Below are positions 3,828 through 59,034 of a DNA stretch of 64,000 nucleotides, in pieces (the first letter of the stretch is position 1; every line of letters begins with the position of its first letter). This DNA is from Candidatus Ghiorseimicrobium undicola (GTDB lineage: Bacteria; Omnitrophota; Gorgyraeia; Ghiorseimicrobiales; Ghiorseimicrobiaceae). The stretch spans positions 457 through 64,456 of the forward strand of contig PCWA01000035.1 of NCBI GenBank assembly GCA_002796125.1, written 5' to 3'. Position numbers and translations under genes: made by a program. The notes beneath the pieces are model-generated. The model saw nothing but the letters and a program-made list of their open reading frames with translations, did no database searches and was not told the DNA's origin.

Positions 3828-3854
3828 AACTGAATATTTCACAAGGAGGTTTAA

Positions 3855-6386: not shown

Positions 6387-6397
6387 AAAAACGGAGA

Positions 6398-14879: not shown

Positions 14880-14921
14880 CGTAGGTTGATAAAGTCAGAA
14901 AATGCGGCTTAAAGAAATAAT

Positions 14922-17470: not shown

Positions 17471-17471
17471 T

Positions 17472-17936: not shown

Positions 17937-17946
17937 AAGGATATTA

Positions 17947-19849: not shown

Positions 19850-19868
19850 AAACGGAGAGGAGGAAGCT

Positions 19869-20663: not shown

Positions 20664-20702
20664 TTAACCGGATTATTAGAAAAAAAGAAAGGGGATTTTG
20701 AA

Positions 20703-21233
20703 ATGGCAAAAAAAAGTTTAATTTTAACCATTGGCTTATTGTTTATTTTTTGCGGATTATCCGTAGCCGAAGGAGAGCATAAGTATATCGGTGTTAAGAA
20801 GTGTTCAATGTGCCATCAGTCTGATGCAAAAGGCAACCAGTACAAACAATGGCTCTCTACCGCGCATGCTAAGGCTTATGAAAGATTGGGCAGCCCAGAA
20901 GCTAAAGAAACTGCCGAAAAAGCAGGAGTATCGGGCAATCCTCAAGAAGTAGGCCAATGTTTAAAGTGCCATATAACCGCCTATGGCGCAGATGGAAGCT
21001 TATTAGATTCCGGATTTAAGAAAGAAGACGGTGTGCAGTGCGAAACATGCCATGGAGCAGGAAGCGATTATATGGCAATGAGCGTTATGCAGGATAGGGA
21101 TAAGGCAATTGCCGCGGGCTTGATTATGCCTACGGAAGAGGTCTGCGTTAAATGCCATAATGAAGAAAGCCCGAATTTTAAAGGTTTCAATTTTGACGAG
21201 TATTATCCAAAAATAGCGCACCCAAGGCCGTAA
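20703..21233 (+). CDS. Periplasmic tetraheme cytochrome c.
   Basis: Signal peptide and four CxxCH (CSMCH, CLKCH, CETCH, CVKCH). Confidence 0.75.
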   Translation: MAKKSLILTIGLLFIFCGLSVAEGEHKYIGVKKCSMCHQSDAKGNQYKQWLSTAHAKAYERLGSPEAKETAEKAGVSGNPQEVGQCLKCHITAYGADGSLLDSGFKKEDGVQCETCHGAGSDYMAMSVMQDRDKAIAAGLIMPTEEVCVKCHNEESPNFKGFNFDEYYPKIAHPRP

Positions 21234-26318: not shown

Positions 26319-26347
26319 ATGCAGTAATGTTTTAGATGATAATAGGG

Positions 26348-26377
26348 AAGGGCTACTATTGTTTGATGGTAGCCCTT
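26348..26377 (+). terminator. Hairpin (aagggctac / gtagccctt), a weak Rho-independent terminator candidate between cytochrome paralogues 1 and 2.
   Basis: 9-bp perfect stem with an 11-nt loop, followed by ttccc (short U-tract). A second GC hairpin (cttcggcg...cgccgaag) lies at about 26456-26485. Confidence 0.35.
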
Positions 26378-26508
26378 TTCCCACAAAAAGATTTTAACCC
26401 GCCTTCGCGGAATTCTCCGCCTTGTAAGGCCGGGATGGATAGCTGAGGAATTCCGCTTCGGCGAGGTTTTCGCCGAAGGGAAGAGAAAGATTCTACGCTC
26501 TTACAGGC

Positions 26509-27678
26509 GTGGAGCTTCAAAAAAATTTAATGAAAATTATACATACCGGAATTATTTTGACGTCATCAATTTTTTTATTCTCTATAGCCGATTTGTCTTT
26601 TGCCGGAGTCGCCGGATCCCGGCACGACATGTATTTTTTGAGCAAAGGAACCGACCCTAATCCCTGCGCATACTGCCACATACCGCATAATGCCGCGGGT
26701 GATAAAATCTGGTCTGACTGGGCAAATGAGGCTCAACTCACCAGCGGCCCGTCAACGACCATTGGTAATATGTGCTATACCTGCCATGACGGGACTGCCA
26801 GCTATCGCGGCTTAAATAGCGTATTTAATCTTTCTCTGCAGCAGCATAAAATATCTGCCGGCCGGGATTGCGATATGTGCCACAGTGTGCATGATAACAC
26901 TAACGGGCAATTTATGAATATAGCGGGTAAGCAGAATTCTTATTGTGCCGCCTGTCATGATGCTGCGGTTAATGCCGGAGGGTTAGGCGACCATGTAAGC
27001 TATCCCGCGAATCATCCAAATTGCGGAGGGTGCCATGGAGTATTTGAACTGGATTCATTAGGGGCAAACGGCGATGATGCCAGCTGCCACCTTTGTCATG
27101 CTAAAGCTCACGGCGCGGTAAATTATACGGCAGGATCGATAACTAATCCTATATTAAAATCCAATAATACGGATAGCCAGTATTGCGGGCTTTGCCATCC
27201 GGATTTGGTCCAGGCGAATTCAGGCGGCAGCAAGCATCCGGCCAATACATCAGGCAGTGCTTATGGTAAGATAACATGCCAGTCATGCCATGACCCGCAT
27301 CAGCCCGGGATAACAAACCAGCTGTATCTATTGACGGACAGCAATATAGACTCGCAGATGTGTATTGATTGTCATAACGGTTCCAGCGGCCCGGACATCG
27401 GGCATTCTCATCCTAATCAAGTTAGTTTTGGCACTATTGTTCCTGTAGATGCTTCGCCGCAGACAGGTACCCCTCCGGGTAATCAAATAAATGATAATGA
27501 TTATGATGATGGACATTCGGATCCGGATACTTACCCTGATTATCCCGCTAATTCCGCCAGCATGATATGCGAAACCTGTCATAGCGTGCATCGCAAAGCG
27601 GATAATGCCGGAATAAAACTTTTAAGAATAACCAATACTAATTCGGCATTGTGCTTAAACTGCCACACGGACAAGTAA
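26509..27678 (+). CDS. Multiheme cytochrome c, paralogue 2 (11 CxxCH).
   Basis: Same N-terminal block (SRHDMYFLSKGTDPNPCAYCHIPH...) and shared C-terminus LLRITNTNSALCLNCHTDK. Confidence 0.8.
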   Translation: MELQKNLMKIIHTGIILTSSIFLFSIADLSFAGVAGSRHDMYFLSKGTDPNPCAYCHIPHNAAGDKIWSDWANEAQLTSGPSTTIGNMCYTCHDGTASYRGLNSVFNLSLQQHKISAGRDCDMCHSVHDNTNGQFMNIAGKQNSYCAACHDAAVNAGGLGDHVSYPANHPNCGGCHGVFELDSLGANGDDASCHLCHAKAHGAVNYTAGSITNPILKSNNTDSQYCGLCHPDLVQANSGGSKHPANTSGSAYGKITCQSCHDPHQPGITNQLYLLTDSNIDSQMCIDCHNGSSGPDIGHSHPNQVSFGTIVPVDASPQTGTPPGNQINDNDYDDGHSDPDTYPDYPANSASMICETCHSVHRKADNAGIKLLRITNTNSALCLNCHTDK

Positions 27679-27735
27679 GTATAGAGTATTGGGTATTGAG
27701 TATAGAGTATCGAGTACGAGAATTAAAAATTAAAA
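27676..27735. repeat. 7-bp-periodic tandem repeats (gagtat-type, then attaaaa/gaatcaa-type) filling the spacer between cytochrome paralogues 2 and 3.
   Basis: gtaagta tagagta ttgggta ttgagta tagagta tcgagta cgag aattaaa aattaaa aATGaag aatcaag aatcaaa. Confidence 0.8.
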
Positions 27736-28914
27736 ATGAAGAATCAAGAATCAAAAACTGCAGGTTATTTGAAAATTCCCTTAGCCATTAGTTTAATAGT
27801 TCTGGCTTATAATTTAAGTTTCGCCGGGGTGTCCGGGACAGTCCATGACATGTATTCTTTAGGTAAGGGAACAGACCCGAACCCCTGCGGCTATTGCCAT
27901 ATGCCGCATAAGGCCGCAGGAGAGAAAATCTGGTCCGACTGGGGCAATGAGACGCAATTAACCAGCGGTCCATCAACCGCCATAGGTAATATGTGCTATA
28001 CCTGCCATGATGGGACAGTGACTAATGTGGGTTTATCGACAGCGTTTAACGCTTCCCGGCAGCAGCATAAAATACCTGCCGGGCAGGATTGCGATATGTG
28101 CCATAGCGTGCATGATAATACGAACGGAAAGTTTATGAATGTTGTAAAGAAACAGCAAACATATTGCGCCGCCTGCCATGATGCAATAGTTAATGCTGGG
28201 GGGCTTGGCGATATGACTTCAGCTGGAAATCATCCCAGTTATTGGGCGTCTACGCCCGCTCATAATATAAATGGTTCACCCACCGGCGCATTCTGTACGG
28301 CTTGTCATGAACGCGTGCATTATTCTCAATTTGACTGCAGGGGATGTAATTTTTGCCATAAAGCACATGACGGGACTAATTATTCAACCGCGCAAGTGCC
28401 TAATCCGATTTTAAAAGCCGACAATACTGATAGTCAGTATTGTGCCTCATGCCATCCATATAAGATTCAGGCATCAAGCGGTGGTGATAAACATCCGGCA
28501 AACCTTGCGGCAGCTGGCAACTGGGGAAAGGTTATTTGCCATGATTGCCACGATCCGCACCAGCCCGGTGTTACGAACCATCCTTTTATATTAACGGATA
28601 CTAATGTTGATTCGGCAATGTGTATTAATTGCCACGATAATACAGCCGGGCCTGAGATAGGAGTTTCGCATCCGCATCAGATTCCTTTTGGCAGTATAGT
28701 TCCGACTGATGGCTCTGCTGCGGCTGGTACGCCCGCTGCGAATGCAATAGATGATGACGGAGAAGACGGAGTTGATTATCCATTAAATTCAGCTAATCTT
28801 ATTTGTGAGACGTGTCATGGAACACACCGCAGAGTTGATGATGCGGGGACTAAACTACTTAGAATAACCAATACTAATTCGGCATTGTGCCTAAACTGCC
28901 ACACGGATAAATGA
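27736..28914 (+). CDS. Multiheme cytochrome c, paralogue 3 (11 CxxCH).
   Basis: Same family. The last ~80 nt are nearly identical to paralogue 2. The N-terminal MKNQESK is encoded by heptamer repeats. Confidence 0.8.
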   Translation: MKNQESKTAGYLKIPLAISLIVLAYNLSFAGVSGTVHDMYSLGKGTDPNPCGYCHMPHKAAGEKIWSDWGNETQLTSGPSTAIGNMCYTCHDGTVTNVGLSTAFNASRQQHKIPAGQDCDMCHSVHDNTNGKFMNVVKKQQTYCAACHDAIVNAGGLGDMTSAGNHPSYWASTPAHNINGSPTGAFCTACHERVHYSQFDCRGCNFCHKAHDGTNYSTAQVPNPILKADNTDSQYCASCHPYKIQASSGGDKHPANLAAAGNWGKVICHDCHDPHQPGVTNHPFILTDTNVDSAMCINCHDNTAGPEIGVSHPHQIPFGSIVPTDGSAAAGTPAANAIDDDGEDGVDYPLNSANLICETCHGTHRRVDDAGTKLLRITNTNSALCLNCHTDK

Positions 28915-30086
28915 TGAAATTAAAAATGAAAAATAAAAAATCTAAAACCGTGACTTATTTTAAAATTCCCTTAGCCGTCAGTTTATTTTTTTTGATTTAT
29001 GATTTAAGTTTTGCGGGGGTGTCTGGGACAGTCCATGATATGTACACACAGGGTAAAGGCACTAGCCAGGAGGTATGCGCTTATTGCCATATTCCTCATC
29101 AGGCCAAAGGTGATAAAATCTGGTCTGACTGGGCAAATGAGGCTCAACTCACCAGCGGCCCGTCAACAACCATAGGCAATATGTGCTATACCTGCCACGA
29201 CGGGACAGTGACCAATATAGGCTTATCAACGGTATTTAATGCTTCGCTGCAGCAGCACGTTATGCCTGCCGGCCAGGATTGCGATATGTGCCATTCTGTG
29301 CACGATAATACTAACGGTAAGTTTATGAATGTCGGCTTAACCGAGAACTATTATTGCGCCAGTTGCCATAATGCTGCGGTAAACGCTGGCGGGCTGGGTG
29401 ATTATACGAATTCAGGAAACCATTTTAATTATGGCGTATATGACGGCGCCCATCCCAAAAGGTTTGGCTCCGGCTGTTATAGCTGCCATTATGATCATAT
29501 GCAAAGCATCGTGAGTTTAGGCAGTTGTAAATTCTGCCATGAAGCTCATGCCGGAGCGAATTATTCTACGCCATCGGTATCTAAACCTATCTTGCGTATT
29601 GATAACACCGATAGCGCATTTTGTATATCTTGTCATCCTGCGATGCAGCAGGCGACGACAGGCGGCAATAAGCATCCCGCTAATTTGACTGCCGGAGGAA
29701 ATTGGGGCATAGTGGATTGCCATGACTGCCATGATGTACATCAGCCGAATAATCCTAATAATCCTTTTATATTACGTAACCAAAATACCGATTCCGGATA
29801 CTGCGCATATTGTCACGAGGCGATTAATGAAACCTATGGGCCTAAAATCGGTAATGGGCATCCGGTAAATATTGCTTTCGGAGCCTATCCTCCGATTGAT
29901 GCGTCTTTGACGCCTGCGGGCAATGCTATAGATGATGACGCATATTACGGGATAGATTATCCGGCAAATTCATCCGATATGATATGCGAAACATGCCATT
30001 CGGTGCATCGAAAGGGCGTGGCAAGCCCTCTATTGCGCATGAGCATTACGGATAGCTCGTTATGCCTTAACTGTCATCAGATGTAA
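28911..30086 (+). CDS. Multiheme cytochrome c, paralogue 4 (11 CxxCH).
   Basis: Same family. Its start overlaps the stop of paralogue 3. A 56-nt stretch is identical to paralogue 2 (gataaaatctggtctgactgggcaaatgaggctcaactcaccagcggcccgtcaac). Confidence 0.8.
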   Translation: MMKLKMKNKKSKTVTYFKIPLAVSLFFLIYDLSFAGVSGTVHDMYTQGKGTSQEVCAYCHIPHQAKGDKIWSDWANEAQLTSGPSTTIGNMCYTCHDGTVTNIGLSTVFNASLQQHVMPAGQDCDMCHSVHDNTNGKFMNVGLTENYYCASCHNAAVNAGGLGDYTNSGNHFNYGVYDGAHPKRFGSGCYSCHYDHMQSIVSLGSCKFCHEAHAGANYSTPSVSKPILRIDNTDSAFCISCHPAMQQATTGGNKHPANLTAGGNWGIVDCHDCHDVHQPNNPNNPFILRNQNTDSGYCAYCHEAINETYGPKIGNGHPVNIAFGAYPPIDASLTPAGNAIDDDAYYGIDYPANSSDMICETCHSVHRKGVASPLLRMSITDSSLCLNCHQM

Positions 30087-30132
30087 TGCGGTTGTTGGCA
30101 GTGAGTTATGAATTAGGCGAGATAAAAGAAAA

Positions 30133-31572
30133 ATGAAAAGCATAAAAACTTTATTACCTATATTTGTTTTTATTGTCTGTCTTTTTGCTGCCAGCCATGT
30201 TTTTGCTTCACACGGCCAGGGACAAAAATGTTATATGTGCCATCATGCTATGCATAATAATAATTCTCATGTAGTTATAGACCGCAAGGCTGTTGACAAT
30301 GGGCAGATAGCTTGTTATGATTGCCATTCTTCGGCCAGCGCAGTGGCAGCCCCGGACACGGAAAAAGAATTTATAAGCGGCTATTCCCGTCATCCTTTAG
30401 GAAGCGATAGCGAGTGCGTTGTCTGTCATGATTTGGGCAGCAGCCATATAGACGGTAATCTTGATAGTTGGCCGGACATAACCTTGAAAGATCCAGACTC
30501 GGCGGATTCCCATGTGTACACCGGAGTTAAAATTAATGATTTTTGCCTTTCCTGCCATGATAACAGCCCGGTTACTTTAGGCGGGGCGGCGAATGTGCCT
30601 GTAGATTTATCCAGCGCTTATGAATTTACCGGCCACGGTAAAATAAGCATAGATGAGCCTTGTAATTCCTGCCATGAACATCATGCGTCCATGACTAAAC
30701 CCTACTTGATTAAAGATGTAATTAACAGCGCCAATGTTACGGGAAACGATAATAGCGTATGTTTTGCCTGCCATAGTTATTCAGAAGGAATTTATCCCGG
30801 AAAGAATGTTTATTTATCTTCCGAGCACGGCATCCAAAACAAACTTTGCATAGACTGCCACAATCCGCATGGGGACAATAAGGATTTATGTTATTTATGC
30901 CACAACGCGAATTACTCGGCGCATTACAGCACGCAGCGCGATAAGCTTTGCATAGACTGCCATAATCCGCACGAAAAGAACGACTTAAAGATGAACAGGG
31001 AAGACGAGGAAAAGCTTTGTTTTATTTGTCACTCCGGACTGGAAAATGAATTTGGGAATATCCGAGACGGCGTCGGAGGGGCATTTTCTCATCATAAAGT
31101 TGACGATGAAGAATTCGCAGGCGGCAGGGTAGAATGTTTTGACTGCCATAATCCGCATGTAGTTACAAAGCTGAATATCATTAGCGACCCGGAAGATCCT
31201 CTGCTCATGCCCAGGCCTTTTTCAAGCGCGTCATACCGCCAGAGAACGGCAGTTTATGATGATTTTTGCCTTTCCTGCCACGATGGTTCACGCATGGGCG
31301 CAAAGGACATAGCTTCAGAATTAAGCGATGAAAATTATCTGGATAGCGGTTTTACCGAAGACGGCAGCAAGAACCTGCATGCAGAGCACAAGGATAAAAA
31401 TTTTGGATGCCAAAACTGTCATGATGCGCATTCCAGCGACGGAACCGGAGGCATGCAGCGGGGGGCTCTTTTACATGAGGAAATAACAGTAAATGATTGG
31501 GATCCATCCGGCGGATATAATAACGGTAAAAATTCATGCGATACTTCAGCTTTAGGTATGAGCTGTCATTAA
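30133..31572 (+). CDS. Periplasmic multiheme cytochrome c (about 13 CxxCH).
   Basis: Signal peptide and 13 CxxCH motifs in 479 aa. Directly upstream of the outer-membrane beta-barrel gene. Confidence 0.8.
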   Translation: MKSIKTLLPIFVFIVCLFAASHVFASHGQGQKCYMCHHAMHNNNSHVVIDRKAVDNGQIACYDCHSSASAVAAPDTEKEFISGYSRHPLGSDSECVVCHDLGSSHIDGNLDSWPDITLKDPDSADSHVYTGVKINDFCLSCHDNSPVTLGGAANVPVDLSSAYEFTGHGKISIDEPCNSCHEHHASMTKPYLIKDVINSANVTGNDNSVCFACHSYSEGIYPGKNVYLSSEHGIQNKLCIDCHNPHGDNKDLCYLCHNANYSAHYSTQRDKLCIDCHNPHEKNDLKMNREDEEKLCFICHSGLENEFGNIRDGVGGAFSHHKVDDEEFAGGRVECFDCHNPHVVTKLNIISDPEDPLLMPRPFSSASYRQRTAVYDDFCLSCHDGSRMGAKDIASELSDENYLDSGFTEDGSKNLHAEHKDKNFGCQNCHDAHSSDGTGGMQRGALLHEEITVNDWDPSGGYNNGKNSCDTSALGMSCH

Positions 31573-31611
31573 TGTTTAGAATATATAATGCAGAATGTAG
31601 AATGTAAAATT
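31570..31611. repeat. 7-bp-periodic tandem repeat (tagaatg-type) spanning the stop of the 13-heme cytochrome and the start of the beta-barrel gene.
   Basis: taatgtt tagaata tataatg cagaatg tagaatg taaaatt. Confidence 0.8.
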
Positions 31612-33387
31612 AACGAGGTAGAAGGGATATTACTATTTTTAGGGGTGTTTTTATGCGCTTTTTTATTTCTTTGCAAAAGTTCTTATGCGAATCCGGCAGA
31701 GAATTTAAATATTAATGCCGAATCCGAATATAAATTCAGTGATTTTGAGCGCGATCCGGAACCAGCCTTGTCATCAACCGGAGCGAATCTTTCCCAGGAG
31801 TATAAGTTTTATTTAGAAGGAGGGGTATTAAAAGACGGGTTGCTTGATGCCGAATTAGGAGTGTCCACGCAGGATAAATACAGGCAAAATGATGCGGATT
31901 TTGAAGATAAGGTGCGTTTTGATTACGGCAGGATTCTACGCATAGAAACAGAGACAACTAGAGAAACCGATGAAGAGATATTCTTTTCAGCCACTACTGA
32001 GCCGCAATCCCCGATATATACAATACGTAAAAAGTATGACGGCCGGCTTGCTCTGGACAGCGTATCAGAATTTGAGTATATTTTAGATCAAAACGAGAGG
32101 AATGATTTGCTTCTTGGCACTGTTACCGGAGAAAAAACCAAAACGCAAATTTTGCGTTTTCGTTCTGATAGGGGGCCTTTGAGTTTTGAAAGCGAATACC
32201 GAAAATCTGACTTTGATGACCTTTTGGGCGTACGCAGCGACATCAGTTCCACGGATTTGAATTTTAATCTTTCTTATCGTCCGGTAAAGTATTTTGGTAT
32301 TTCCGGTTTTTTTGAAGAGAGCAAGGATGAGGATTTAGATAGAAGTACGGAGTTAAATTCCCGTAACTCGCGCCTTGAACTTGAGTTAAAGCCCTTAAAT
32401 GAATTAAAATTGCGTAATCGTTTTAATATCCGGGAAGACGAAGATACAAATACCGGCGAAGACATAACCAATACCTCTGATGAGGTTATACTTAATTTTA
32501 TTCCTGTAAAACAGGTTGACTTACAGCTTAACTATAAAAAAGAGGACGAAGATAAAAACAGAGATTCTTCCTCCATTGTTTCCGAGATTGACGAAAAAAA
32601 AGTCCGCCTAAGAATTAAGCCGGTAAGCGAGCTTGACCTGCAATCGGGATATGAAGTGTCGGATAAGTCAAGTAGTTCAGCGGCTGAAAATATCAAAAAT
32701 ACAAAAGTTTATGCCGATATCGCGTTTGAGCCGTTAACAAGTATCCGGCTAAGCACGAATTACACGAATACAACACAAAAAAATACCTTTACTTCTTTGA
32801 CGGAATCTGATACAAAATCTATATTGGCATCCCTTCAGTATAGGGGAGGCGAAAAGCTGTCTTTCTATTTTCAGGCGGATACAAGTAAAACCGATAATCC
32901 TTCAACGGGGGCGTTTACAAAGACAGATACCCTAAGTTCAAATTTAAATATCGATCTTTTTTCATTTCTTGATGTAGTTGCCCGTAGCAGCCTGCAGGAA
33001 ACCAGCGGATCTTCCGCTTCTGCTTTGGCAAAACGGCTGCTTAGCTCGATAGAATTCAATGCTCGGATTTTTGATAACCTGAAGCTTTCTACTGAGTATG
33101 AATTTATTGATTCAAGCGGAGCGTCTGCTTCAAATGAAGATTTATTTGATGTAGCGGTATTTTACAATATTGGAAAATTTGATTTTTCCTTGCGCCTCCA
33201 GAAGCGGGATGTAGCAGGAGTTAATGCCTTAGATAAAACAACGGTGTTGAGTAATATTAAATACAGATTTACAAAAAACGCGGTATTGAGTTTCAGGTTT
33301 TCCTTAATAGATTTCAGCGATAAAGAGATGGCGGCGAATAGCTATGACTCCACCACGCTGGAGAGTATTTTATCCATGAGGTTCTGA
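31588..33387 (+). CDS. Outer-membrane beta-barrel protein (putative porin component of a porin-cytochrome conduit).
   Basis: Signal peptide, 599 aa of alternating amphipathic S/T/D/N/Y-rich segments, and a C-terminal ...ILSMRF ending in Phe (OMP signature). Flanked by multiheme cytochromes. Confidence 0.6.
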   Translation: MQNVECKINEVEGILLFLGVFLCAFLFLCKSSYANPAENLNINAESEYKFSDFERDPEPALSSTGANLSQEYKFYLEGGVLKDGLLDAELGVSTQDKYRQNDADFEDKVRFDYGRILRIETETTRETDEEIFFSATTEPQSPIYTIRKKYDGRLALDSVSEFEYILDQNERNDLLLGTVTGEKTKTQILRFRSDRGPLSFESEYRKSDFDDLLGVRSDISSTDLNFNLSYRPVKYFGISGFFEESKDEDLDRSTELNSRNSRLELELKPLNELKLRNRFNIREDEDTNTGEDITNTSDEVILNFIPVKQVDLQLNYKKEDEDKNRDSSSIVSEIDEKKVRLRIKPVSELDLQSGYEVSDKSSSSAAENIKNTKVYADIAFEPLTSIRLSTNYTNTTQKNTFTSLTESDTKSILASLQYRGGEKLSFYFQADTSKTDNPSTGAFTKTDTLSSNLNIDLFSFLDVVARSSLQETSGSSASALAKRLLSSIEFNARIFDNLKLSTEYEFIDSSGASASNEDLFDVAVFYNIGKFDFSLRLQKRDVAGVNALDKTTVLSNIKYRFTKNAVLSFRFSLIDFSDKEMAANSYDSTTLESILSMRF

Positions 33388-34331
33388 TGGAATATCAAAT
33401 ACCGAATATTGAAAATCAAAAATACAGATCTATTATTTTTTTGATTTTTATATTTGTTTCTTTGCAGCTTGCGTTTTTTATAGATAAAAATACTGCCTTT
33501 GCCGAAGGGCTAAAGAATCTTAATGATGACTGCCGCGGCTGTCATCAAATAGAAGTTGAAAGTTTTGATTTAACTTTACACTCAGCGGAGATTGATTGTG
33601 CTGCCTGCCATGGTGATGTTAAAAAACATTTAAGCGAAAGCGATAAAAAAGGCAATATAATTAATCCCGCTAATTACGCGTTAAAAAAGGCAAATGCCGT
33701 ATGCCTGCTTTGTCATACGGAAAAAGAAAGAGATGTCCGCGATAAATTCAGGGCGGTTGCTAATCTGCATGATGATATAGCGTGTTTTAGGTGCCATGTT
33801 GTTCATTTGACTGCTGTAGATGCTCCGGTAAGCGATATTGACGGTTTTAGAGATGATTTATCTATAGATTGCGCCTTCTGCCATGATGACCAGGGCCGGA
33901 TTTTTAGCGAGTCGGAGCATGCCTCTTCAGGCCTGATATGTTCCGATTGCCATCTGCTGCATAAGATAAGTACCATAAGCCAGGATATTGAAGAGCAGAT
34001 TGAAAAATGCCTTTCATGCCATCCTCAGCAGCAGCTGGAATTTAAATACCCCTATCCGCATCCATTAAGAGAGCGGCAAATTAAATGTTCGGATTGCCAT
34101 AATCCGCACGGTTGGCAATTTGATAAAATGCTAAAAAAAGACGGCGATAGGGTTTGCGCGGATTGCCATGCCGACGTGGCCATAGAAGGAGGCAGGCATC
34201 CCGCGGGTAAAAACGCGGACCATCCGTTCGGCACTGTAGCGTGTATGGATTGCCACAGGCCGCACGGCTCAATTTTTGATAAAATTTTAATACATAATAT
34301 TGATAGTATTTGCCAAACCTGCCATAATTAG
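33387..34331 (+). CDS. Multiheme cytochrome c (about 11 CxxCH).
   Basis: Signal peptide and 11 CxxCH in 314 aa. Translationally coupled to the beta-barrel gene (start overlaps its stop). Confidence 0.8.
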   Translation: MEYQIPNIENQKYRSIIFLIFIFVSLQLAFFIDKNTAFAEGLKNLNDDCRGCHQIEVESFDLTLHSAEIDCAACHGDVKKHLSESDKKGNIINPANYALKKANAVCLLCHTEKERDVRDKFRAVANLHDDIACFRCHVVHLTAVDAPVSDIDGFRDDLSIDCAFCHDDQGRIFSESEHASSGLICSDCHLLHKISTISQDIEEQIEKCLSCHPQQQLEFKYPYPHPLRERQIKCSDCHNPHGWQFDKMLKKDGDRVCADCHADVAIEGGRHPAGKNADHPFGTVACMDCHRPHGSIFDKILIHNIDSICQTCHN

Positions 34332-34392: not shown

Positions 34393-35250
34393 ATGTATAA
34401 GAACATGAAATGCAAAATATTACTGGTTACGAGTTACTGGCTGCTGGTTACTTTCTTTATTGGCTGCGCGAGCGGGCCATCAAGTTATTGGCGGCCTAAG
34501 CATTTCTCGCGCTCTAAGTACATAAAGGTTGCCATAGTGCCTTTTACAAATCTCAGTAAAGAAAAGGAAGCTGATCAAAGGATAGCCTATTCATTGATAA
34601 CGCATCTTCTCAATACGCATTATTTTAATGTTGTTGAAATGGGGGAAGTGCAAAGGGCTTTGAAGGAAGCCAAGGTGCGCAAGGATGAGGGCCTCTCGGT
34701 AGAGGAAATTAAAAAAATCGGCCGGCTGATTGATGTAGAAGCCTTGCTTATGGGCGCGGTAGAAGAGTATAAGATTGATTCCAGCACTTTACTTGGAGAA
34801 AAAGTATTTGTGCCGGAAGTGTCGATTAACGCGAGGTTAGTCTCTACTGAAGACGCCGAGATAATCTGGGCCGCGAATCACCATCGCAGAGGGGATGACA
34901 GGGTAACTGTGTTTGGGATGGGCAGAATTGACTCTATCAGCGAATTGACAGATGTTATTATAAAGAACATTGTTAATTCTTTGCTTAAAGTGGCAAAAAG
35001 CAAGAGGAGCGCGCTTACCGGGTTAAAACGAAGCGTTATTTTGGAGGATGTCCCAGACGAGGAATTAGAAAATACCGTTTTGGATATTAAGCCTGCCTTA
35101 CGCGAAGATGTCATGGATAAGGCAATGGAAAGCGTAAAAACGGCGTCAAAAGATTCCTCAAGCGCGATAGCGCCTAAAACAGAAGATTCAAAGGCAAAAA
35201 TAAAAAGCGATTACAAAAGAGAGTATGAGCGTGTAAAAAAACAATTTTAA
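34393..35250 (+). CDS. Lipoprotein (lipobox FIGC), unknown function.
   Basis: N-terminal LLVTFFIGCASG signal plus lipobox. Part of the cytochrome/porin cluster. Confidence 0.5.
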   Translation: MYKNMKCKILLVTSYWLLVTFFIGCASGPSSYWRPKHFSRSKYIKVAIVPFTNLSKEKEADQRIAYSLITHLLNTHYFNVVEMGEVQRALKEAKVRKDEGLSVEEIKKIGRLIDVEALLMGAVEEYKIDSSTLLGEKVFVPEVSINARLVSTEDAEIIWAANHHRRGDDRVTVFGMGRIDSISELTDVIIKNIVNSLLKVAKSKRSALTGLKRSVILEDVPDEELENTVLDIKPALREDVMDKAMESVKTASKDSSSAIAPKTEDSKAKIKSDYKREYERVKKQF

Positions 35251-46768: not shown

Positions 46769-47584
46769 ATGGACGCTATTAGGGCTTATTTTAAACAATT
46801 GCGCAAAATCAAGCTTCTTACTCCAAAAGACGAGGTAGAGCTAAGCCGCCGTATCAAAAAAGGCGATGAGGAAGCGCGCAAGAAAATGATCAGCGCTAAT
46901 CTGCGTCTGGTGGTGAGCATTGCCAAGCGTTATTCTTATTTAGGCGTGCCTCTTATGGATTTAATTGAAGAGGGCAATGTTGGCCTGATGCGCGCGGTAG
47001 AAAAATTCAGCGCGAAGCGCGGATTCAGGTTTTCGACATATGCCGCCTGGTGGATAAGGCAGGCAATTACGCGTTCTGTCTTTGACCAGGCAAAAACTAT
47101 CCGTATCCCCGTATACATGAATGAGCAGATAAATAAAATCCGCAAGGTTACGGAAAAGCTCTCTCATAAACTAAAACGCATACCTACAAGCGCAGAAATT
47201 GGCAAGGCAATGCGTATTTCCGCCAGAAAAGTAGAGCGCGTGAATATGTGGATTAAAAAAATATCTTCACTGGAGGCGCCGGTCGGAGATGAAAAAGAAG
47301 GGCAGATGATAGACCTGATTGAGAATGAAAATTCCGTAAGCCCGGATAAGGAATTAAGCCGTTTTATGAACAAAGAGCGGATTAATGATATCCTGGAAGT
47401 TATGGAGGCGCGCGAAAAAGAGATACTGGATTTACGTTTTGGGCTTGTAGATGGGACCATTCATACTTTAGCTGAAGTGGCCAAGCATCTTAAGCTTTCC
47501 CGCGAGCGCGTGCGCCAGATAGAAGAAAGGGCGTTGAAGAAGCTCCGTAAGTTTATCGAAGACCAGGAAGAGGAGTTAAGATAA
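46769..47584 (+). CDS. Sigma-70 family RNA polymerase sigma factor (group 1/2-like, no region 1.1).
   Basis: Region 2 ([19 protein letters not shown]...[13 protein letters not shown]...[17 protein letters not shown]...[14 protein letters not shown]), region 3, and region 4 ([28 protein letters not shown]). Confidence 0.85.
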
Positions 47585-47585: not shown

Positions 47586-48443
47586 ATGAAGACATCTCTG
47601 CATCATGTATTTGCTTTGGTAGTCAGGCGTTTTGAGGATGCCCTGCATTCTTTTTATGTTTCAGAGGTTATAAAAGGGGCTTCTCTTGCCGCCAGCCGCC
47701 TGAAAATAGACTTGCTTGTCCATGTCACCGAAAAGAAGGTTCACGTCGACTGGCTTAATTCCCCGACGCTTAACCTTGAATATGTGGACGGAATTTTATT
47801 CGCTGATATCGATTGTGACGTAAAGACGCTTAAGAAGGTGCTGGATAAGAAAATACCCTGCCTGGTGATGAATAATTATTTAAAAGACCCCATAAACTGT
47901 ATCTCTATTGACAATAAGAATGCCGCGGTTGAGGCAGTGGAATATTTAATAAATCTTGGGCATACAAAAATTGCCACTATCAGTGGAGATTTGAGTACAC
48001 AGGCAGGCAAAGACAGGCTGGAAGGCTATAAGGTTGCTCTTACGCAAAATAAAATTCCTATCAATTTAAATTATATCCGTACGGGAAATTTTCTGCGCAC
48101 CCCTGCTCATCAGGCGGCAGAAACACTCCTTTCTCTAACTGACAGGCCTACCGCTATATTTGCCGCCAGCGACATCATGGCGCTTGAAGCGATAAGCGTC
48201 GCCGGCAAAAAAAACATAAAAGTCCCTGAACAGTTATCTGTTATCGGTTTTGATGATAATCCTATTCTTTCATATAGCGCGTTAGGGCTTACTACGGTAA
48301 GGCAGCCGATAACTGAAATGGGCAGGCTTGCCGTAGAGAATTTGTACCAGATAGTTAATAAAAAGGCAAAACAGGTTCCGATTAAGGTGCTCTTGCCTAC
48401 GAAGTTAATTAAGAGGGAAAGCTGCAAAGAAGTTAAAAAATAA
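47586..48443 (+). CDS. LacI/PBP1-type ligand-binding domain protein lacking the N-terminal HTH.
   Basis: Periplasmic-binding-protein type 1 fold signatures ([40 protein letters not shown]) with no DNA-binding domain. Start is 2 nt after the sigma factor stop. Confidence 0.55.
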
Positions 48444-49375: not shown

Positions 49376-50920
49376 ATGAGTAAAAAACTACTTATGTTCT
49401 GCGCGGCAATACTTGCTTTGGCATTAGTAGTGCCTGCATACGCTGAAGTACAGAACGTAAAAGTAAGCGGAGACCTTACCATTAATGCGTTAGATAGGTA
49501 TAATTTCGCATTGGGTAATACTGATGTTAATTGCGGTGGACATCAGGACGTATTGTATTCCGTTGCCCGTTTAAGAGTAGATGCCGAGTTAACCGACAAC
49601 GTATCAGTAGTAACAAGGCTCTTAAATGAAAGAATCTGGGGTGAAGAATATTATACAGACAACGATGGGGCTACCCAGATACCGACCGGAAGCGCTATCA
49701 CATCCAGCATCAGCCTTGATTTGGCATATGCTGTATTAAAAGAGTTCCTTTATTCGCCTTTGACATTGACCTTAGGCCGTCAGGAACTTCATTTCGGAAA
49801 TGACCTGATCATCGGTGATGTTGACGGCAATAGCATTGCCACACCCGCTTCACCTTTGACAATAACACAGGCTTCTTTAACTGACTTAGGCGACTTAAGC
49901 GTGCGTAAATCATTTGACGCTTTGCGCGGCACCTTGAATTACACGGTTGCCGATCAGCCTTTGACGGTTGATATGGTTTATTCCGTAATTGATGAAAATC
50001 TTAACAACAGAGATGATGATGTAAGGTTATACGGCGGAAACGCCAATTATCCGGTAAACAATGATATCTTGACCGAGGCTTATTTCTGGACCAGAGAAAG
50101 AAGGCCTGATTCAGTAGCAAGTATTACCGGCGCTCTTACTCCTGGACAAAATGAATTAAAGACGGAAAGATTGCATGTTATCGGTACAAGAGGAGTTTAT
50201 ACCGGTATAGATAATCTTACCCTTCAGGGCGAGTGGGCATATCAGTTTGGTAACAAATATATGGATTCCACGCTTTTACCTAACCTGATAACAGCGGCAA
50301 CGATTTTAAATAATCCTAATGGTTACAGGCTGGAAGATTCGCTTGAAGATGTAAGCGCGTGGGCATTACAGTTAGGCGCTAATTACGCCTTTGAGGATGT
50401 CCGTCACCTCCCGGTGCTAGGTATAATTTATACCCATTTATCCGGCGAGAATCCGTATGATTGTTCTGGCGGTATAAGCGAGCCAGATGGTGCTGCTTGG
50501 AATGGCTGGGATGCGATGTTTGAAAATCAGGCAACCGGTACAATATGGAATAAACTGCTTGGTTATTCAAACTGCGATCTTATCAATGTAACTGGAAGTG
50601 TTAAGCCTGATTTCATTGATGATTTGACAATCTTTGCTAACTGGTACCATATCAGATTGGATCAGCAATTAAGCAACAGCGAAGCCGGTTTGTATATACT
50701 TAGCGGAGTCGCGGGCGGCCAGACATTCAAGGTAAGCAGCGATAAGCACGTTGGTGATGAAATAGACGTAAATTTGGTCTATGACTACACAGAAGACGTA
50801 CAGTTAGGCTTAAACCTTGGATGGTTTACCCCTGGCGATCTGTTTAAAAGCACTGATGGCAATGAAGTAAACATGAAGACAGCCACACAGGCAATCGCCT
50901 CTTGCAAAGTTACATTTTAA
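49376..50920 (+). CDS. Outer-membrane beta-barrel protein (porin-like), unknown family.
   Basis: Signal peptide MSKKLLMFCAAILALALVVPAYA, alternating-polarity strands, aromatic girdle residues, and a C-terminal ...CKVTF. Confidence 0.55.
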   Translation: MSKKLLMFCAAILALALVVPAYAEVQNVKVSGDLTINALDRYNFALGNTDVNCGGHQDVLYSVARLRVDAELTDNVSVVTRLLNERIWGEEYYTDNDGATQIPTGSAITSSISLDLAYAVLKEFLYSPLTLTLGRQELHFGNDLIIGDVDGNSIATPASPLTITQASLTDLGDLSVRKSFDALRGTLNYTVADQPLTVDMVYSVIDENLNNRDDDVRLYGGNANYPVNNDILTEAYFWTRERRPDSVASITGALTPGQNELKTERLHVIGTRGVYTGIDNLTLQGEWAYQFGNKYMDSTLLPNLITAATILNNPNGYRLEDSLEDVSAWALQLGANYAFEDVRHLPVLGIIYTHLSGENPYDCSGGISEPDGAAWNGWDAMFENQATGTIWNKLLGYSNCDLINVTGSVKPDFIDDLTIFANWYHIRLDQQLSNSEAGLYILSGVAGGQTFKVSSDKHVGDEIDVNLVYDYTEDVQLGLNLGWFTPGDLFKSTDGNEVNMKTATQAIASCKVTF

Positions 50921-50940
50921 CTTAAGCGGTTGTAAAATAA

Positions 50941-50975
50941 AACCCCGCAGGCCAAAAGCTTGCGGGGTTTTTTAT
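50941..50975 (+). terminator. Rho-independent terminator.
   Basis: aaccccgcaGgccaaaagctTgcggggtt stem (9 bp, GC-rich) followed by tttttatt. Confidence 0.8.
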
Positions 50976-51076
50976 TGCTTATGAATAAGTAATTTGTTAT
51001 AATATTTTAGTTAAGCCTAAGTCATTGACAAAAGAGACAGATTTTATTTGACACCATATGTATATATTGTTAAAAT

Positions 51077-51661
51077 ATGAAAAATAGAAAGATTTACGAC
51101 CAGATTGCCGACACTTTTTTAGGAGCAAGAAAAAAAATAGATGTCAAAAGAGATACGCGAAAACAAAAAAAGATTATTGTATTGGCGGTAATAATTATCA
51201 GTATATTATTTACCGCCCTTTTTTTAAAGAAATCCGCTCTTTCTAATGGTAGGGACGCTAAGGATGTAAAAGGGGCGGTTTATGTGCTTAGCGAGCGGTA
51301 TCCGCTGAGATTATCTTATAATTTACAATATCCTTCAAGCGGCATAAAGAATTTTTCATTTTCCCTGCCGCCTGTCGATCTAGGCGCCTATAAATTATTT
51401 GCATTACGCATCAAGGGCGATAAGGAAGCGGACTTTACAAAAATAATCAAGATAGAGTTTGAAAATTCGCGGCACGAGAAGGACTCGTTTTACGCCGACG
51501 GGATTACTGAAAAGTGGCAGGAATTTTCCGCCGCCTTTGATAAATTAAATAATATCAGCGATTGGTCAGAGATTACAAAGATATCTTTTATTTTTGAAGA
51601 TTGGAACGTTAGCCGGAAAAAAGGCATTATATATATTGATAATATAAGGTTTAGCGAGTAG
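51077..51661 (+). CDS. Membrane-anchored hypothetical protein with a beta-sandwich (carbohydrate-binding-module-like) C-terminal domain.
   Basis: One TM (IIVLAVIIISILFTALFL). The C-terminal ...WSEITKISFIFEDWN...GIIYIDNIRF resembles a CBM/jelly-roll terminus. Weak. Confidence 0.3.
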   Translation: MKNRKIYDQIADTFLGARKKIDVKRDTRKQKKIIVLAVIIISILFTALFLKKSALSNGRDAKDVKGAVYVLSERYPLRLSYNLQYPSSGIKNFSFSLPPVDLGAYKLFALRIKGDKEADFTKIIKIEFENSRHEKDSFYADGITEKWQEFSAAFDKLNNISDWSEITKISFIFEDWNVSRKKGIIYIDNIRFSE

Positions 51662-51674
51662 AGGAGGTTAAAAT

Positions 51675-52784
51675 ATGCGTATAATATCTATCGCGAATCA
51701 GAAAGGCGGATGCGGAAAAACTACTACCGCGGTAAATTTATCTGCCGGGCTTGCTTCTTTAGGTTATAAGGTTTTACTTATAGATTTAGACCCTCAGGCG
51801 CATGCTTCTCTCGGCTTAGGCGTATCCCGCGAGATTACTATTTATGACGTGCTTTCAAAGCTTACAAAATATAAGGCAACGCTTTCGCAGATAATAGTTC
51901 CCATAAATGATAACTTTGATTTGGCTCCTTCCAATATACTTCTCTCAACCCTTGAGCAGGAATTATCCGATGAAATATCCAGGGAGGCGTGCCTTCATGA
52001 AGTGCTTTCAAGCTTTAAATCAAATTATGATTTTTGTTTTATAGATTGCCCCCCGAATCTTGGGCTTTTGACGATTAATGCCATCCGGGCGAGTTCCGAG
52101 GTAATCATTCCTGCCGAGGCAAGCCGCTTTTCAGTAGAAGGCGTTAAAAAAATAACCGAAATTATCGACCTCATAAAGAACCGGCTGAATCACGCGGTAA
52201 CCAATAAAGTGTTGGTCACCATGTTTGATTCCCGCCTAAATCATTCATTTGAAGTGCTCAATACAATTAAGAATGTTTTTGCCAAAAACTTATTTGATAC
52301 GATTGTCCATGTTAATGTAAAGCTTAAAGAGGCTCAATCCAGCGGCCTTCCTGTTATCGCGCACGATAAATATTGCCGCGGCAGTAAGGACTACATCAGC
52401 CTTGCCAGAGAACTCACCTTAAATAGCAAGCCGCGGGAACAGGAAAAAGTGACGGAAAAAGCCGTAAAGGCAACATTGGAGAAGAAGATAGAAGAAGAAA
52501 TGCGAAAATTTATCCCTGTCGCTTTTAACCTGCACGCGCCTGATGCGAAGGAAGTTTATTTAGTGGGCGACTTTAATAACTGGACGAAATCCGATGAAGC
52601 GCGCATGATCCGCCAGGGCAACGGCGACGCTAAGTGGTCGATTAATTTACCTTTGGCGCGCGGCGGCTACCGCTATAAATTTATCGTTGATGATAATTGG
52701 ACGGAAGACCCTTTAAACCCCAAAAAGGCGAGGAATTCTTTCGGAGGAGTGGATTCTTTAATAGAGGTTTCAGATAATAATTAA
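51675..52784 (+). CDS. ParA/MinD-family ATPase fused to a C-terminal CBM48 / AMPK-beta glycogen-binding-like domain.
   Basis: Deviant Walker A IANQKGGCGKTTTAVNL and ParA motifs (LLIDLDPQ, FIDCPPNLG). The C-terminus VYLVGDFNNWTKSDEARMIRQGNGDAKWSINLPLARGGYRYKFIVDDNWTEDPLNP matches the CBM48 fold. Confidence 0.7.
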   Translation: MRIISIANQKGGCGKTTTAVNLSAGLASLGYKVLLIDLDPQAHASLGLGVSREITIYDVLSKLTKYKATLSQIIVPINDNFDLAPSNILLSTLEQELSDEISREACLHEVLSSFKSNYDFCFIDCPPNLGLLTINAIRASSEVIIPAEASRFSVEGVKKITEIIDLIKNRLNHAVTNKVLVTMFDSRLNHSFEVLNTIKNVFAKNLFDTIVHVNVKLKEAQSSGLPVIAHDKYCRGSKDYISLARELTLNSKPREQEKVTEKAVKATLEKKIEEEMRKFIPVAFNLHAPDAKEVYLVGDFNNWTKSDEARMIRQGNGDAKWSINLPLARGGYRYKFIVDDNWTEDPLNPKKARNSFGGVDSLIEVSDNN

Positions 52785-57038: not shown

Positions 57039-57431
57039 ATGATTAAATCCCGCGGCCGTCCGATAAAACCACGAAAAATCCGGCGCCAGCCAAAGATTAT
57101 GCATTTTAGCCCCCGGGGGAAGCCCGGCAGGCCGGATGAAATTGAGCTTAAATTTGAGGAATTTGAGGCGGTTAAGCTGATAGATTACATCGGGCTTTCC
57201 CAGAAAAAGGCCGCCAGTCTGATGGGTATATCCCAGCAGACATTCAGCCGGGTGTTCCGTAGGGCGCATAAAGCCATAGCAAATGGCCTGATTTTGGGCA
57301 AAATAATCAGAATAAGGGGCGGAAACTATGATCTCACCGGCCACGTGCATATTCAGCCGCAAGAGCAAAAACATCTCAAGAGGGCTTCCAGAAGCCGCCA
57401 GTCAAGAGCAGTCCGGAAAAAATCCATCTAA
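57039..57431 (+). CDS. DUF134 (UPF0251) family putative DNA-binding protein.
   Basis: RGRPIKPRKI...FSPRGKPG...ELKFEEFEAVKLIDYIGLSQKKAASLMGISQQTFSRVFRRAHKAIANGL, a sigma-70 region 4-like HTH. Confidence 0.65.
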   Translation: MIKSRGRPIKPRKIRRQPKIMHFSPRGKPGRPDEIELKFEEFEAVKLIDYIGLSQKKAASLMGISQQTFSRVFRRAHKAIANGLILGKIIRIRGGNYDLTGHVHIQPQEQKHLKRASRSRQSRAVRKKSI

Positions 57432-57696
57432 AATTCCTTTAAAAACACAATCTTAATAACTTCTCTGAAGCCAGAATAGCCATATCTATTACTTCCTATA
57501 ATATATCTTATGTTAACTTCAATATGTGGATAATATTGCCATAATTGATTGCGCTATATATAGTTATAGTGAATATGTAATTTCCTGTGGATAAGCAGTT
57601 TTTGGTTTACTTGGATTTACCGGGGTTTTTATTGCTTTCCCCCGTCTTGCGTTTGGTGTGTTTTGCTGTTTATATTTTTGGTAGAAGCTTGTGGGC

Positions 57697-58962
57697 CTAT
57701 TTGATTAGTTCGGGGTTATTTTCTATGATTTTCAGGAAGGTTTCAACTATTTTGGGGTCAAATTTATTGTTTTCATTTGCCGCGATTTCAGCGATGATTT
57801 TCTCAAGCGGCAGTGCCTTGCGGTATGGCCGGTCGGTATGCATGGCGTCAAAGGTGTCTGCCACGGCCAGTATCTTTGCCCCCGACTCGATTTTATTGCC
57901 ATCCAGGCCGTCAGGATAGCCGCTCCCGTCACATCTCTCATGGTGGTGCCTTACCAGCTTCGCCGCTTCTTTTAAGAAAACCAGGGGTTTTATTATCTCT
58001 TCCCCTTTTACCGGGTGTAATTTAATTTGCTCAAATTCTTCCGGAGTCAGGCGCCTTTCGCAAAGAAGAATACTGTCTTTTATGCCGATTTTGCCTATAT
58101 CGTGCAATAAAGCCGCCCTATGCAGGTCTCGCTTCACGGGCGCGCTGAAATTCATTTCATCGGCTATAGCCATAGCATATTTGGCGACATTTTCTGAGTG
58201 CCGCCTTGTGTATTGGTCTCTGGCGTCAAGCGCTAACGCAAGAGCGGTTATAGTTTTCAGGTATTCATTTTGTATGTCTTCATGCAAGAGTATGTTTTTA
58301 AAAATAATCGCCGCAACCTTGGCAATATTTACCATAAGCGAAAATTCTTTGTCGCTGAATTCTTTATCCGGTTTTTTATCGCAAATATAGATAATTCCCA
58401 GTACCTGGTTTTGAAAAATCAACGGTACGCCTATAAAAGATTTCTTTAGGTACGGTTCTTTATTGATATTTTTTAGAAAGCCTTCTTTTTCCAGGTCGTT
58501 TATCATCAGGGGCGCTTTCTGCGCGGCGATAAAGCCAGATATGCCGTCTTTTTTTGACAGGTTAAAATTTATGGTTTCGTCGTTTTTCAGGCCTATGGAA
58601 TGTTCGATTTCAAAATTTTCGCTTTCATTATTGATAGAAAGTAAAATAACCTTTTCCACGTAGAAGAATTTGTTAATACTTTCTACGATATGTTCCGAGG
58701 CTTTTTGGCGCTCAAGAGTTGTCGCTATTTCTTCGTGCAGTTTGAATACGAATTTGGTTTCTTCCTCATGCCATAGTTTATCTTCCAGCTTTATTGCCTT
58801 GGGCGGATAATGATCAGGCATCAGGTAATCATTTTGGGTTATTTGGGAGCTGTATTTTTTATAACGGCGGGCAGTTAACTCTGATTCTGCGGTTTTGAGA
58901 AGCTTACGGGTTATAATTATTACCCCCGACAGCAAGATTAAAAATAAAGCAATTTTCAGCAT
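57697..58962 (-). CDS. HD-GYP domain c-di-GMP phosphodiesterase with N-terminal TM and GAF-like domain.
   Basis: YTRRHSENVAKYAMAIA...ALLHDIGKIGI...HHERCDGSGYPDGL (HD-GYP signature). Confidence 0.8.
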   Translation of the reverse strand: MLKIALFLILLSGVIIITRKLLKTAESELTARRYKKYSSQITQNDYLMPDHYPPKAIKLEDKLWHEEETKFVFKLHEEIATTLERQKASEHIVESINKFFYVEKVILLSINNESENFEIEHSIGLKNDETINFNLSKKDGISGFIAAQKAPLMINDLEKEGFLKNINKEPYLKKSFIGVPLIFQNQVLGIIYICDKKPDKEFSDKEFSLMVNIAKVAAIIFKNILLHEDIQNEYLKTITALALALDARDQYTRRHSENVAKYAMAIADEMNFSAPVKRDLHRAALLHDIGKIGIKDSILLCERRLTPEEFEQIKLHPVKGEEIIKPLVFLKEAAKLVRHHHERCDGSGYPDGLDGNKIESGAKILAVADTFDAMHTDRPYRKALPLEKIIAEIAANENNKFDPKIVETFLKIIENNPELIK

Positions 58963-59034
58963 AGTTTTTTGCCTCCCCCCTGTTTATATTTTTGCCTTTT
59001 TTAGTTTAAAAGAGGAGCCGTTTATCTACTTTTT

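Follow-up and report, generated by a model that had tools for sequence, protein, structure and literature searches.

Here we report a pair of adjacent genes from Candidatus Ghiorseimicrobium undicola (Omnitrophota), which lies in a 64,000-nucleotide stretch of DNA (contig PCWA01000035.1 of assembly GCA_002796125.1, positions 457 to 64,456 of the forward strand; called the window below). The second gene of the pair encodes a ParA/Soj-type ATPase fused to a carbohydrate-binding module (CBM) of family CBM48, of the type found in AMPK beta, and the first encodes a single-pass membrane protein, here called mem190. As judged from its sequence, the novelty of this fusion protein, ParA-CBM48, is that a ParA-family ATPase carries a fused cargo-binding module, the likely cargo being a polysaccharide. 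The gene pair, taken together with the glycogen-enzyme genes that neighbor it in related genomes, suggests an undescribed way to hold or distribute glycogen stores. We tentatively propose, at somewhat less than an even chance, that this ParA-type ATPase attaches directly to glycogen inside the cell, which it tethers or distributes, and that the cytosolic tail of mem190 is its partner.

An initial annotation of the window, made from the nucleotide sequence alone, had recognized both genes, and its coordinates, strand and lengths were reproduced here: two co-directional open reading frames (ORFs) on the + strand, coding for 194 and 369 aa and spaced by 13 bp (Table 1), with GAGGAGG located 7 nt 5′ of the ATG of the longer one. 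Searching the 369-aa protein against Pfam yielded AAA_31 at residues 1 to 175 (E = 9e-55) and CbiA (E = 3e-20), which together span residues 1 to 227, as well as AMPK1_CBM at residues 281 to 367 (50.5 bits versus a cut-off of 26.8) and CBM_48 at residues 282 to 342 (34.5 bits versus 22.4). These data bore out the earlier assignment of residues 1 to 250 to a Soj-like deviant Walker ATPase, with AAA_31 above its cut-off, the motifs intact and the domain now placed at residues 1 to 248, as well as that of the C-terminus to a CBM48/AMPK-beta module, for which both profile hidden Markov models scored above the Pfam cut-offs. The peptide VYLVGDFNNWT...GYRYKFIVDDNWTEDPLNP was located at residues 294 to 349, and the AlphaFold2 (AF2) model of the whole protein had a mean predicted local distance difference test score (pLDDT) of 86.

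Since the fusion could have been an artefact of a frameshift joining two genes, as the initial annotation had cautioned, its integrity was examined in relatives. The gene is one uninterrupted ORF in >80 loci, the same architecture recurs in >120 homologues, and the linker is in frame in all loci and aligned sequences looked at. Given >120 protein clusters from independent assemblies and 356 genome stretches, an assembly or frameshift artefact has practically no chance of being the explanation. A search of 5.8 billion proteins returned >120 full-length homologues that are ~360 aa long, share the Pfam architecture of the window protein and align to it with 99% coverage at 55 to 72% identity; PF16561 was precomputed in all 120 listed homologues. 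The names given to the homologues do not go beyond "ParA family protein," "AAA family ATPase" or "chromosome partitioning protein." All homologues with a source name came from Candidatus Omnitrophota/Omnitrophica metagenome-assembled genomes (MAGs). When one genome per GTDB species was scanned with patterns specific to this ParA-CBM48 subfamily, 356 stretches matched the fusion, and the best 80 of the 356 were all from Omnitrophota-type MAGs. Many MAGs with the gene pair and its conserved neighbors (the module; loci L014, L016, L022, L037 and others) are titled "uncultured Planctomycetales bacterium" at NCBI, which looks like a label problem. On 72,556 plasmids, tblastn found no ParA fusion, with only GlgB-type and "glycogen-binding domain" proteins matching, and a search of 1.8 billion representative proteins with the CBM only gave no Walker A among the top 150 matches, where secreted multi-copy CBM proteins dominate. 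By sequence comparison, the fusion is judged to be old as well as real. In an alignment of 65 sequences, which underlies the conservation data below, mean identity to the window protein was 65% for the ATPase, 49% for the CBM and 17% for the linker. Because the ATPase and the CBM are conserved while the linker diverges in sequence and length, we reasoned that a flexible tether connects two functional domains in this protein.

The ATPase half was then compared with characterized members of its superfamily. Its deviant Walker A motif reads NQKGGCGKTT and contains the signature lysine K10 along with K15, its Walker A′ has D37/D39, and its Walker B has D124; all of these residues, together with R187, K232, R235 and K238, are invariant in the alignment, and K216 is conserved too. 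Foldseek matched the domain to the Soj/ParA structures 9A6N, 8RAY, 2BEK and 6IUB, with TM(target) scores of 0.86 to 0.91 and 36 to 42% identity, and phmmer matched it to 8RAY with an E value of 1e-52, whereas McdA (~25% identity), MinD, FlhG and BcsQ (17%) were much farther from it than Soj. With deviant Walker motifs and the Soj/ParA fold both present, the ATPase belongs to the ParA/MinD superfamily. As a Soj-type ParA, it is expected to form dimers upon binding ATP and might be able to bind DNA. R187 aligns with the arginine of the Soj "D-x-R" segment, a position that we take to be that of B. subtilis Soj R189, the nonspecific DNA-binding arginine (Hester & Lutkenhaus 2007).

Assignment to one of the named functional groups was tried and rejected in each case. 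In NCBIfam, every curated ParA, MinD, RepA and BcsQ equivalog was sub-threshold (ParA_partition, 101 bits versus a cut-off of 180; RepA, 104 versus 348; minD_bact, 77 versus 213; BcsQ TIGR03371, 61 versus 158), and the C-terminus was sub-threshold to GlgB N-terminal regions. A ParABS partition ATPase was dismissed on these scores and because parB is missing from the loci: no ParB-like gene was noticed in 83 non-redundant loci, where labels came from module-gene models and from the Pfam lists of nine loci, in which no ParB family occurs, and no ParB model was run. MinD was dismissed because the protein ends in a CBM48 instead of an amphipathic membrane-targeting helix, no min genes lie nearby and minD_bact is below cut-off. 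As for BcsQ, TIGR03371 is below cut-off, identity to 6YB5 is 17%, and there are no bcs genes in the loci.

The CBM48 module follows a linker that begins with a variable part and ends in a conserved amphipathic helix (family consensus LEKxMxEILKEELPKL; AF2 helix at residues 255 to 276, with a low pLDDT of 53 to 76) and that is 24 to 45 aa long across the family. Over the module itself the AF2 pLDDT is ~90. In a phmmer search against PDB, the AMPK beta1 carbohydrate-binding module with cyclodextrin (1Z0N/1Z0M) came first, with an E value of 3e-10, ahead of the CBM48s of LSF1, SEX4, GlgB and neopullulanase. All 65 of 65 homologues retain W303, K/R335, W342, F/Y356 and D/N360, which align with AMPK beta1 W100, K126, W133, L146 and N150, presumably the sugar-contact residues (Polekhina 2005); the equivalent of T148 is variable. 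These features place the C-terminus in CBM48 and predict that it binds alpha-glucan. Because ParA-CBM48 has no signal peptide and its ATPase half needs ATP, the module should be cytoplasmic, and glycogen is therefore the alpha-glucan available to it. In a library of 1.8 billion proteins, the AMPK-beta-like CBM48 type occurs in 8163 protein clusters (E ≤ 1e-3), and its top relatives are secreted proteins with 3 to 18 tandem copies, many of them ~480 aa long with four copies.

The product of the upstream gene had been described initially as a membrane-anchored beta-sandwich protein and a possible partner of the fusion, and both parts of that description gained support. The AF2 model (pLDDT, 79.6) contains a transmembrane helix and a series of beta strands, and Foldseek against PDB matched the sandwich to the CBM11 structure 1V0A (E = 2.6e-7; TM, ~0.5; 14% identity), a moderate though significant similarity, followed by 6R3M and then by CBM8/4/16/28 and CIA30. 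The gene lies directly upstream of ParA-CBM48 in 72 of the 74 loci with enough upstream DNA, at a median gap of 21 bp, which supports partnership; in the remaining 2 of 74 an upstream-extended ParA ORF call apparently overlaps a mem190 gene that is still listed upstream. The pairing of the two genes is conserved throughout the phylum. Lysine and arginine are enriched before the transmembrane helix (7.0 in the 15 aa before it versus 1.7 after it, in 63 sequences), so the N-terminus should be cytosolic and the sandwich periplasmic (N-in, C-out). Conservation in the protein is highest in the helix of residues 3 to 16 (consensus MDKKEIYEHLANIYLD), where Y7, A11 and L15 are invariant and K3, K4, I6, E8, H9, L10, I13, Y14 and D16 are at least 90% conserved; a disordered poly-Lys/Arg stretch comes after it. 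Among all ORFs of 89 loci and the window, this N-terminal motif is confined to the mem190 family (78/78). In the sandwich, E127, E134, Y139, W147, W163, E174, W176 and N177 are invariant, and N130 is at least 90% conserved. No Pfam or NCBIfam family matched mem190 above threshold (CBM_17_28 was sub-threshold, E = 0.016). A single-sequence search with the 194-aa protein found only 2 homologues, and a profile built from locus-derived homologues found 1011 proteins, all "hypothetical" and with no Pfam domain.

To describe the genomic setting, 89 loci were fetched and their ORFs labelled with profiles built from the first nine, five near-duplicate loci being set aside. A GH57 gene lies ≤1 kb upstream of ParA-CBM48 in 45 of 59 loci, placed between the porin and mem190 genes. 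The neighbor GH57 has no signal peptide, its catalytic domain starts right at the N-terminus, and among PDB entries it is closest to the 8ZYI family (E = 1e-86), amylopullulanases that cut alpha-1,4 and alpha-1,6 bonds (PMC12106739). We also considered whether this GH57 is a glycogen branching enzyme and rejected the idea, for the NCBIfam score is 29 bits versus a cut-off of 1000. In locus L001, whose fusion protein is 70% identical to that of the window, a GH57 gene, glgA (TIGR02095, 570 bits) and a gene for a GH57 4-alpha-glucanotransferase lie immediately upstream of the porin gene, and in 5 loci a phosphoglucomutase gene is found just downstream. An Alginate_exp-type porin gene occurs ≤3 kb upstream in 37 of 50 loci, L007 included. 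Because L007 keeps the core module while its distant flanks differ, the association goes beyond general synteny. Glycogen synthesis has been reported across Omnitrophota MAGs (PMC8542988).

Downstream of ParA-CBM48, most loci carry a gene for a DUF4870-like membrane protein of ~108 aa and then one for a protein of ~130 to 160 aa, p130. The latter (L003:11426-11809, L006:11448-11873 and equivalents; not in the window) has a ~60-residue Lys-rich, histone-H1/McdB-like N-terminus, and its conserved C-terminal domain of ~75 aa gave no Pfam, NCBIfam or PDB sequence match; p130 is a second candidate partner or nucleoid-binding component. A conserved protein of 60 aa is often encoded after the module (L003:12594-12776, L007:11876-12058 and equivalents); its N-terminus has a helix-extension-helix resembling Rho_N/SAP, and its tail, CFG...C..xxCCWRxDC, is Cys-rich. 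In L007, an exopolysaccharide cluster (15533-21110; ~4 kb downstream of the module) comprises Poly_export, Wzz/GNVR and a separate 262-aa AAA_31 ATPase that resembles a BY-kinase and shows that other ParA/MinD-superfamily paralogues exist in these genomes. Within the module itself, no polysaccharide synthase, flippase, ABC exporter or sugar transporter was seen in the loci examined. Together with L001/L012, L010 and L011, the window forms part of a sub-clade that lacks GH57 and the two small downstream genes at the site and has a radical-SAM gene after the ATPase gene instead.

The link to glycogen is strengthened by the retention of the sugar-site residues in every homologue, by the cytoplasmic location and by the alpha-glucan-enzyme neighbors in related loci. 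We propose the following mechanism as the most economical one. The ATP-bound dimer would offer two CBM48 domains on flexible linkers, which would bind intracellular glycogen (alpha-1,4/1,6-glucan) particles, and the ATPase core would bind a surface, most probably nucleoid DNA, via R187 and conserved basic residues near it. Through its cycle of ATP binding and hydrolysis, the protein would make and break a tether between glycogen and the surface, and the outcome would be that glycogen and the enzymes on it are spread out and shared between daughter cells. The 16-residue helix and polybasic stretch of mem190, which would be co-transcribed, are predicted to be its only cytosolic part; by docking on the ATPase dimer, this part may regulate or stimulate the enzyme. 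By analogy with ParB, MinE, McdB and PomX, whose N-terminal peptides act in this way on their ATPases, the conserved cytosolic peptide of mem190 is the best candidate regulator. A more specific form of the proposal, in which ParA works without an adaptor, ParA-CBM48 dimers bridge nucleoid DNA and glycogen, the mem190 peptide switches the ATPase and mem190 senses the periplasm via its CBM-like domain, is possible and, on balance, rather doubtful.

Several points weigh against a role in glycogen positioning, which the initial annotation had suggested for the fusion. Using tblastn with glgA and three GH57 proteins, and Pfam on 35 further ORFs, we found no glycogen gene in the 64-kb window. This CBM48 type is not glycogen-specific, since its closest sequence relatives are secreted multi-copy proteins, and the CBM of AMPK beta makes protein-protein contacts too. 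In the textbook ParA ratchet the activator of the ATPase sits on the cargo; a ParA that holds its cargo itself cannot operate in that way and acts as a tether, so directed movement is not implied here. A universally conserved partner with a periplasmic CBM-like domain fits poorly with nucleoid granule partition and is left unexplained by it. Moreover, many Omnitrophota are reported to be very small cells, in which active positioning seems less necessary.

The membrane partner is instead central to an unlikely alternative, an envelope-associated complex for alpha-glucan handling, in which a BcsQ/BcsR-like ATP-dependent dimer would dock on the cytosolic tail of mem190, recruiting glycogen or nascent alpha-glucan and GH57 to a site on the membrane; the link from this site to glucan uptake or export would run through the CBM-like domain in the periplasm and the AlgE-type porin. 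It would account for a membrane-bound partner that exposes nothing but a conserved peptide to the cytosol, for a periplasmic CBM11-like fold with invariant Trp, Tyr and Glu, for the conserved Alginate_exp porin gene and for the small DUF4870-like membrane protein gene that follows the ATPase gene in most relatives. BcsQ-BcsR of cellulose secretion likewise ties a ParA/MinD-family ATPase to a polysaccharide system, Pfam CBP_BcsQ scores above cut-off on the fusion (36 versus 21.3 bits), and BcsR is a small helical partner encoded directly upstream of BcsQ, an order that resembles that of mem190 and ParA-CBM48. However, the module is without the synthase, flippase, ABC exporter or sugar transporter that would serve such a complex, there is no BcsB/BcsC context at the loci, and BcsQ has no CBM. 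The ATPase is closer to Soj (40%) than to BcsQ structures, its NCBIfam BcsQ score is far below cut-off, the position of the Soj DNA-binding arginine is invariant, and in the window a terminator-like hairpin splits the porin gene from the pair.

That arginine and the 40 to 42% identity of the ATPase to chromosomal Soj/ParA, as high as that of chromosomal ParAs between phyla, would also suit a chromosomal Soj/ParA or a regulator derived from it, whose CBM48 would act as an AMPK-like glycogen sensor coupling segregation, replication control or division to carbon reserves. No second ParA was noticed within ~20 kb per genome, a literature search for a canonical parAB in Omnitrophota yielded nothing, and the CBM of AMPK beta serves regulation. 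We nonetheless regard this explanation as improbable: no adjoining parB was noticed in 83 non-redundant loci, the window gene is ~5 to 6 kb from a terminus-like switch in GC skew and gene strand, not near an origin, and the genes conserved around it encode alpha-glucan enzymes and a membrane protein and have no part in chromosome maintenance. Another distinctly improbable reading is that the C-terminal E-set/CBM48 fold has lost sugar binding and serves protein interaction, with the ATPase positioning a protein cargo such as the membrane protein complex. E-set domains have been put to many uses, diverse secreted proteins are the nearest relatives of this one, and the CBM of AMPK beta contacts the kinase domain; yet the positions aligned to the sugar-stacking tryptophans, the lysine and the Asn/Leu of AMPK are kept in all 65 homologues even though the domain is only 49% identical, and the neighborhood is enriched in alpha-glucan enzymes.

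Direct binding of glycogen by ParA-CBM48, the reading we tentatively prefer, can be set against known systems. ParA/MinD ATPases are known organisers of chromosomes, plasmids, carboxysomes, chemoreceptor arrays and division sites, in every known case by way of a separate adaptor. Chromosomal ParA/Soj proteins of type Ib (T. thermophilus Soj, 2BEK; H. pylori Soj, 6IUB; ParA, 8RAY) share the ATPase fold, size, motifs and arginine, whereas ParA-CBM48 adds a C-terminal linker and CBM48 and is paired with a membrane-protein gene, often also with GH57, with no parB/parS context noticed. McdA/McdB of carboxysome positioning, PomZ/PomXY and PpfA/TlpT likewise employ a ParA-family ATPase for non-DNA cytoplasmic cargo, as proposed here, but a separate adaptor binds the cargo and activates the ATPase in those systems, whereas ParA-CBM48 has the module built in, and its ATPase domain is only ~25% identical to McdA. 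McdB-type partners have a long Lys-rich disordered N-terminus, like p130 in most relatives, although p130 is absent from the window. PhaM/PhaF reportedly tether PHB/PHA granules to the nucleoid (work ascribed to Pfeiffer 2011 and Galan 2011), so the proposed outcome would be alike, a carbon-storage inclusion coupled to the nucleoid and inherited by daughters. PhaM and PhaF are no ATPases, however; they have histone-like tails and bind polyester granules, not polysaccharide. The CBM of AMPK beta is of the same family and has the same sugar-site residues as that of ParA-CBM48, and in the plant PTST proteins (CBM48 plus coiled coil) a CBM48 brings another protein to glucan; here the partner domain is a ParA ATPase, with no kinase scaffold or long coiled coil.

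The initial annotation had been unaware of any description of this arrangement, and a search of the full-text literature for ParA with CBM48 or for glycogen positioning gave nothing relevant. We know of no ParA-type system for glycogen and of no ParA with a carbohydrate-binding module. Glycogen is the most widespread bacterial carbon store. Should the CBM48 bind it, a polysaccharide would join the cargos of ParA, a natural case of direct cargo binding by the ATPase would become available for testing ratchet and tether models, and there would be a way into the study of how cells are organised in Omnitrophota, a large phylum that lacks cultured model organisms. If the adaptor-less form of the proposal is true, this would be the first described machinery for the spatial control and inheritance of bacterial glycogen, conserved across an uncultured phylum. 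Because the protein is small and soluble, glycogen binding, DNA binding and peptide-stimulated ATPase activity are directly testable in vitro.

Table 1. Features of the mem190/ParA-CBM48 locus (positions refer to the window)
Feature	Position	Strand	Basis and remarks
Outer-membrane porin gene, Alginate_exp (AlgE-like)	49376..50920	+	Pfam PF13372, E 5e-19; conserved neighbor, putative functional member
Terminator-like hairpin, 14-bp stem and T tail, between porin and mem190 genes	50939..50971	+	Consensus scan
Promoter-like TTGACA-17-TAAAAT abutting the mem190 ATG	51048..51076	+	11/12 consensus match
mem190 gene, 194 aa, single-pass N-in membrane protein, conserved partner candidate	51077..51661	+	ORF, locus adjacency
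mem190 cytosolic N-terminal peptide (predicted), residues 1-16 (MKNRKIYDQIADTFLG)	51077..51124	+	Family alignment, AF2 helix 3-16
mem190 transmembrane helix, residues 27-57	51155..51247	+	AF2
mem190 periplasmic beta-sandwich (predicted), residues 67-193, CBM11-like fold	51275..51655	+	Foldseek, AF2 strands 67-193
ParA/Soj-type ATPase-CBM48 fusion gene, 369 aa	51675..52784	+	ORF, Pfam, homologues, AF2
ATPase domain, residues 1-248	51675..52418	+	Foldseek, phmmer, 65-sequence conservation
Linker, residues 249-278	52419..52508	+	Variable part, then conserved amphipathic helix
CBM48/AMPK-beta-type alpha-glucan-binding module (predicted), residues 279-365	52509..52769	+	Pfam, 1Z0N alignment, conservation, AF2

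In the window, the porin and mem190 genes are 156 bp apart, and the gap holds the promoter-like hexamers. Because a hairpin follows the porin gene and these hexamers precede mem190, both as consensus matches only, the data suggest that the mem190/ParA-CBM48 pair is transcribed in this genome as a unit of its own. The promoter-like site is too near the ATG for a normal leader, and its use is uncertain. On the other side of the porin gene, at 47586-48443, is a gene for a 285-aa protein with a LacI-family sugar-binding domain and without the usual N-terminal helix-turn-helix. Its start lies 2 bp beyond the stop of a sigma-70 gene (271 aa; 46769-47584), and it is not found at the syntenic position in loci L003 to L009. 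Downstream of the pair, the long ORFs are all on the + strand up to 57431 and on the - strand from 57697, and the GC skew turns there from positive to negative, with a peak in cumulative skew. This looks like a replication terminus at about 57400-59000, ~5 to 6 kb from the ParA-CBM48 gene.

Other gene groups lie farther upstream in the window. Between 25218 and 35250 there are six genes for multihaem c-type cytochromes (Paired_CXXCH, cytochrome c7/c3, partly MtrC/MtrF-like), five in a row at 25218-31572 and one at 33387-34331, interleaved with a porin-like gene (31588-33387) and a CsgG-like gene (34393-35250), and this cluster looks like a conduit for extracellular electron transfer. A haem biosynthesis cluster at 9878-17015 and 21344-22405 encodes HemA, HemC, a CobA/HemD fusion, HemB and two radical-SAM proteins that might be of the Ahb type, and a ResB cytochrome c biogenesis gene near it is consistent with the cytochrome cluster. 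Finally, type II secretion/type IV pilus-like genes were found at 815-8104, coding for a secretin with an STN domain and a TPR, GspF and a GspE-type ATPase that has an MshEN (cyclic di-GMP-binding) domain.

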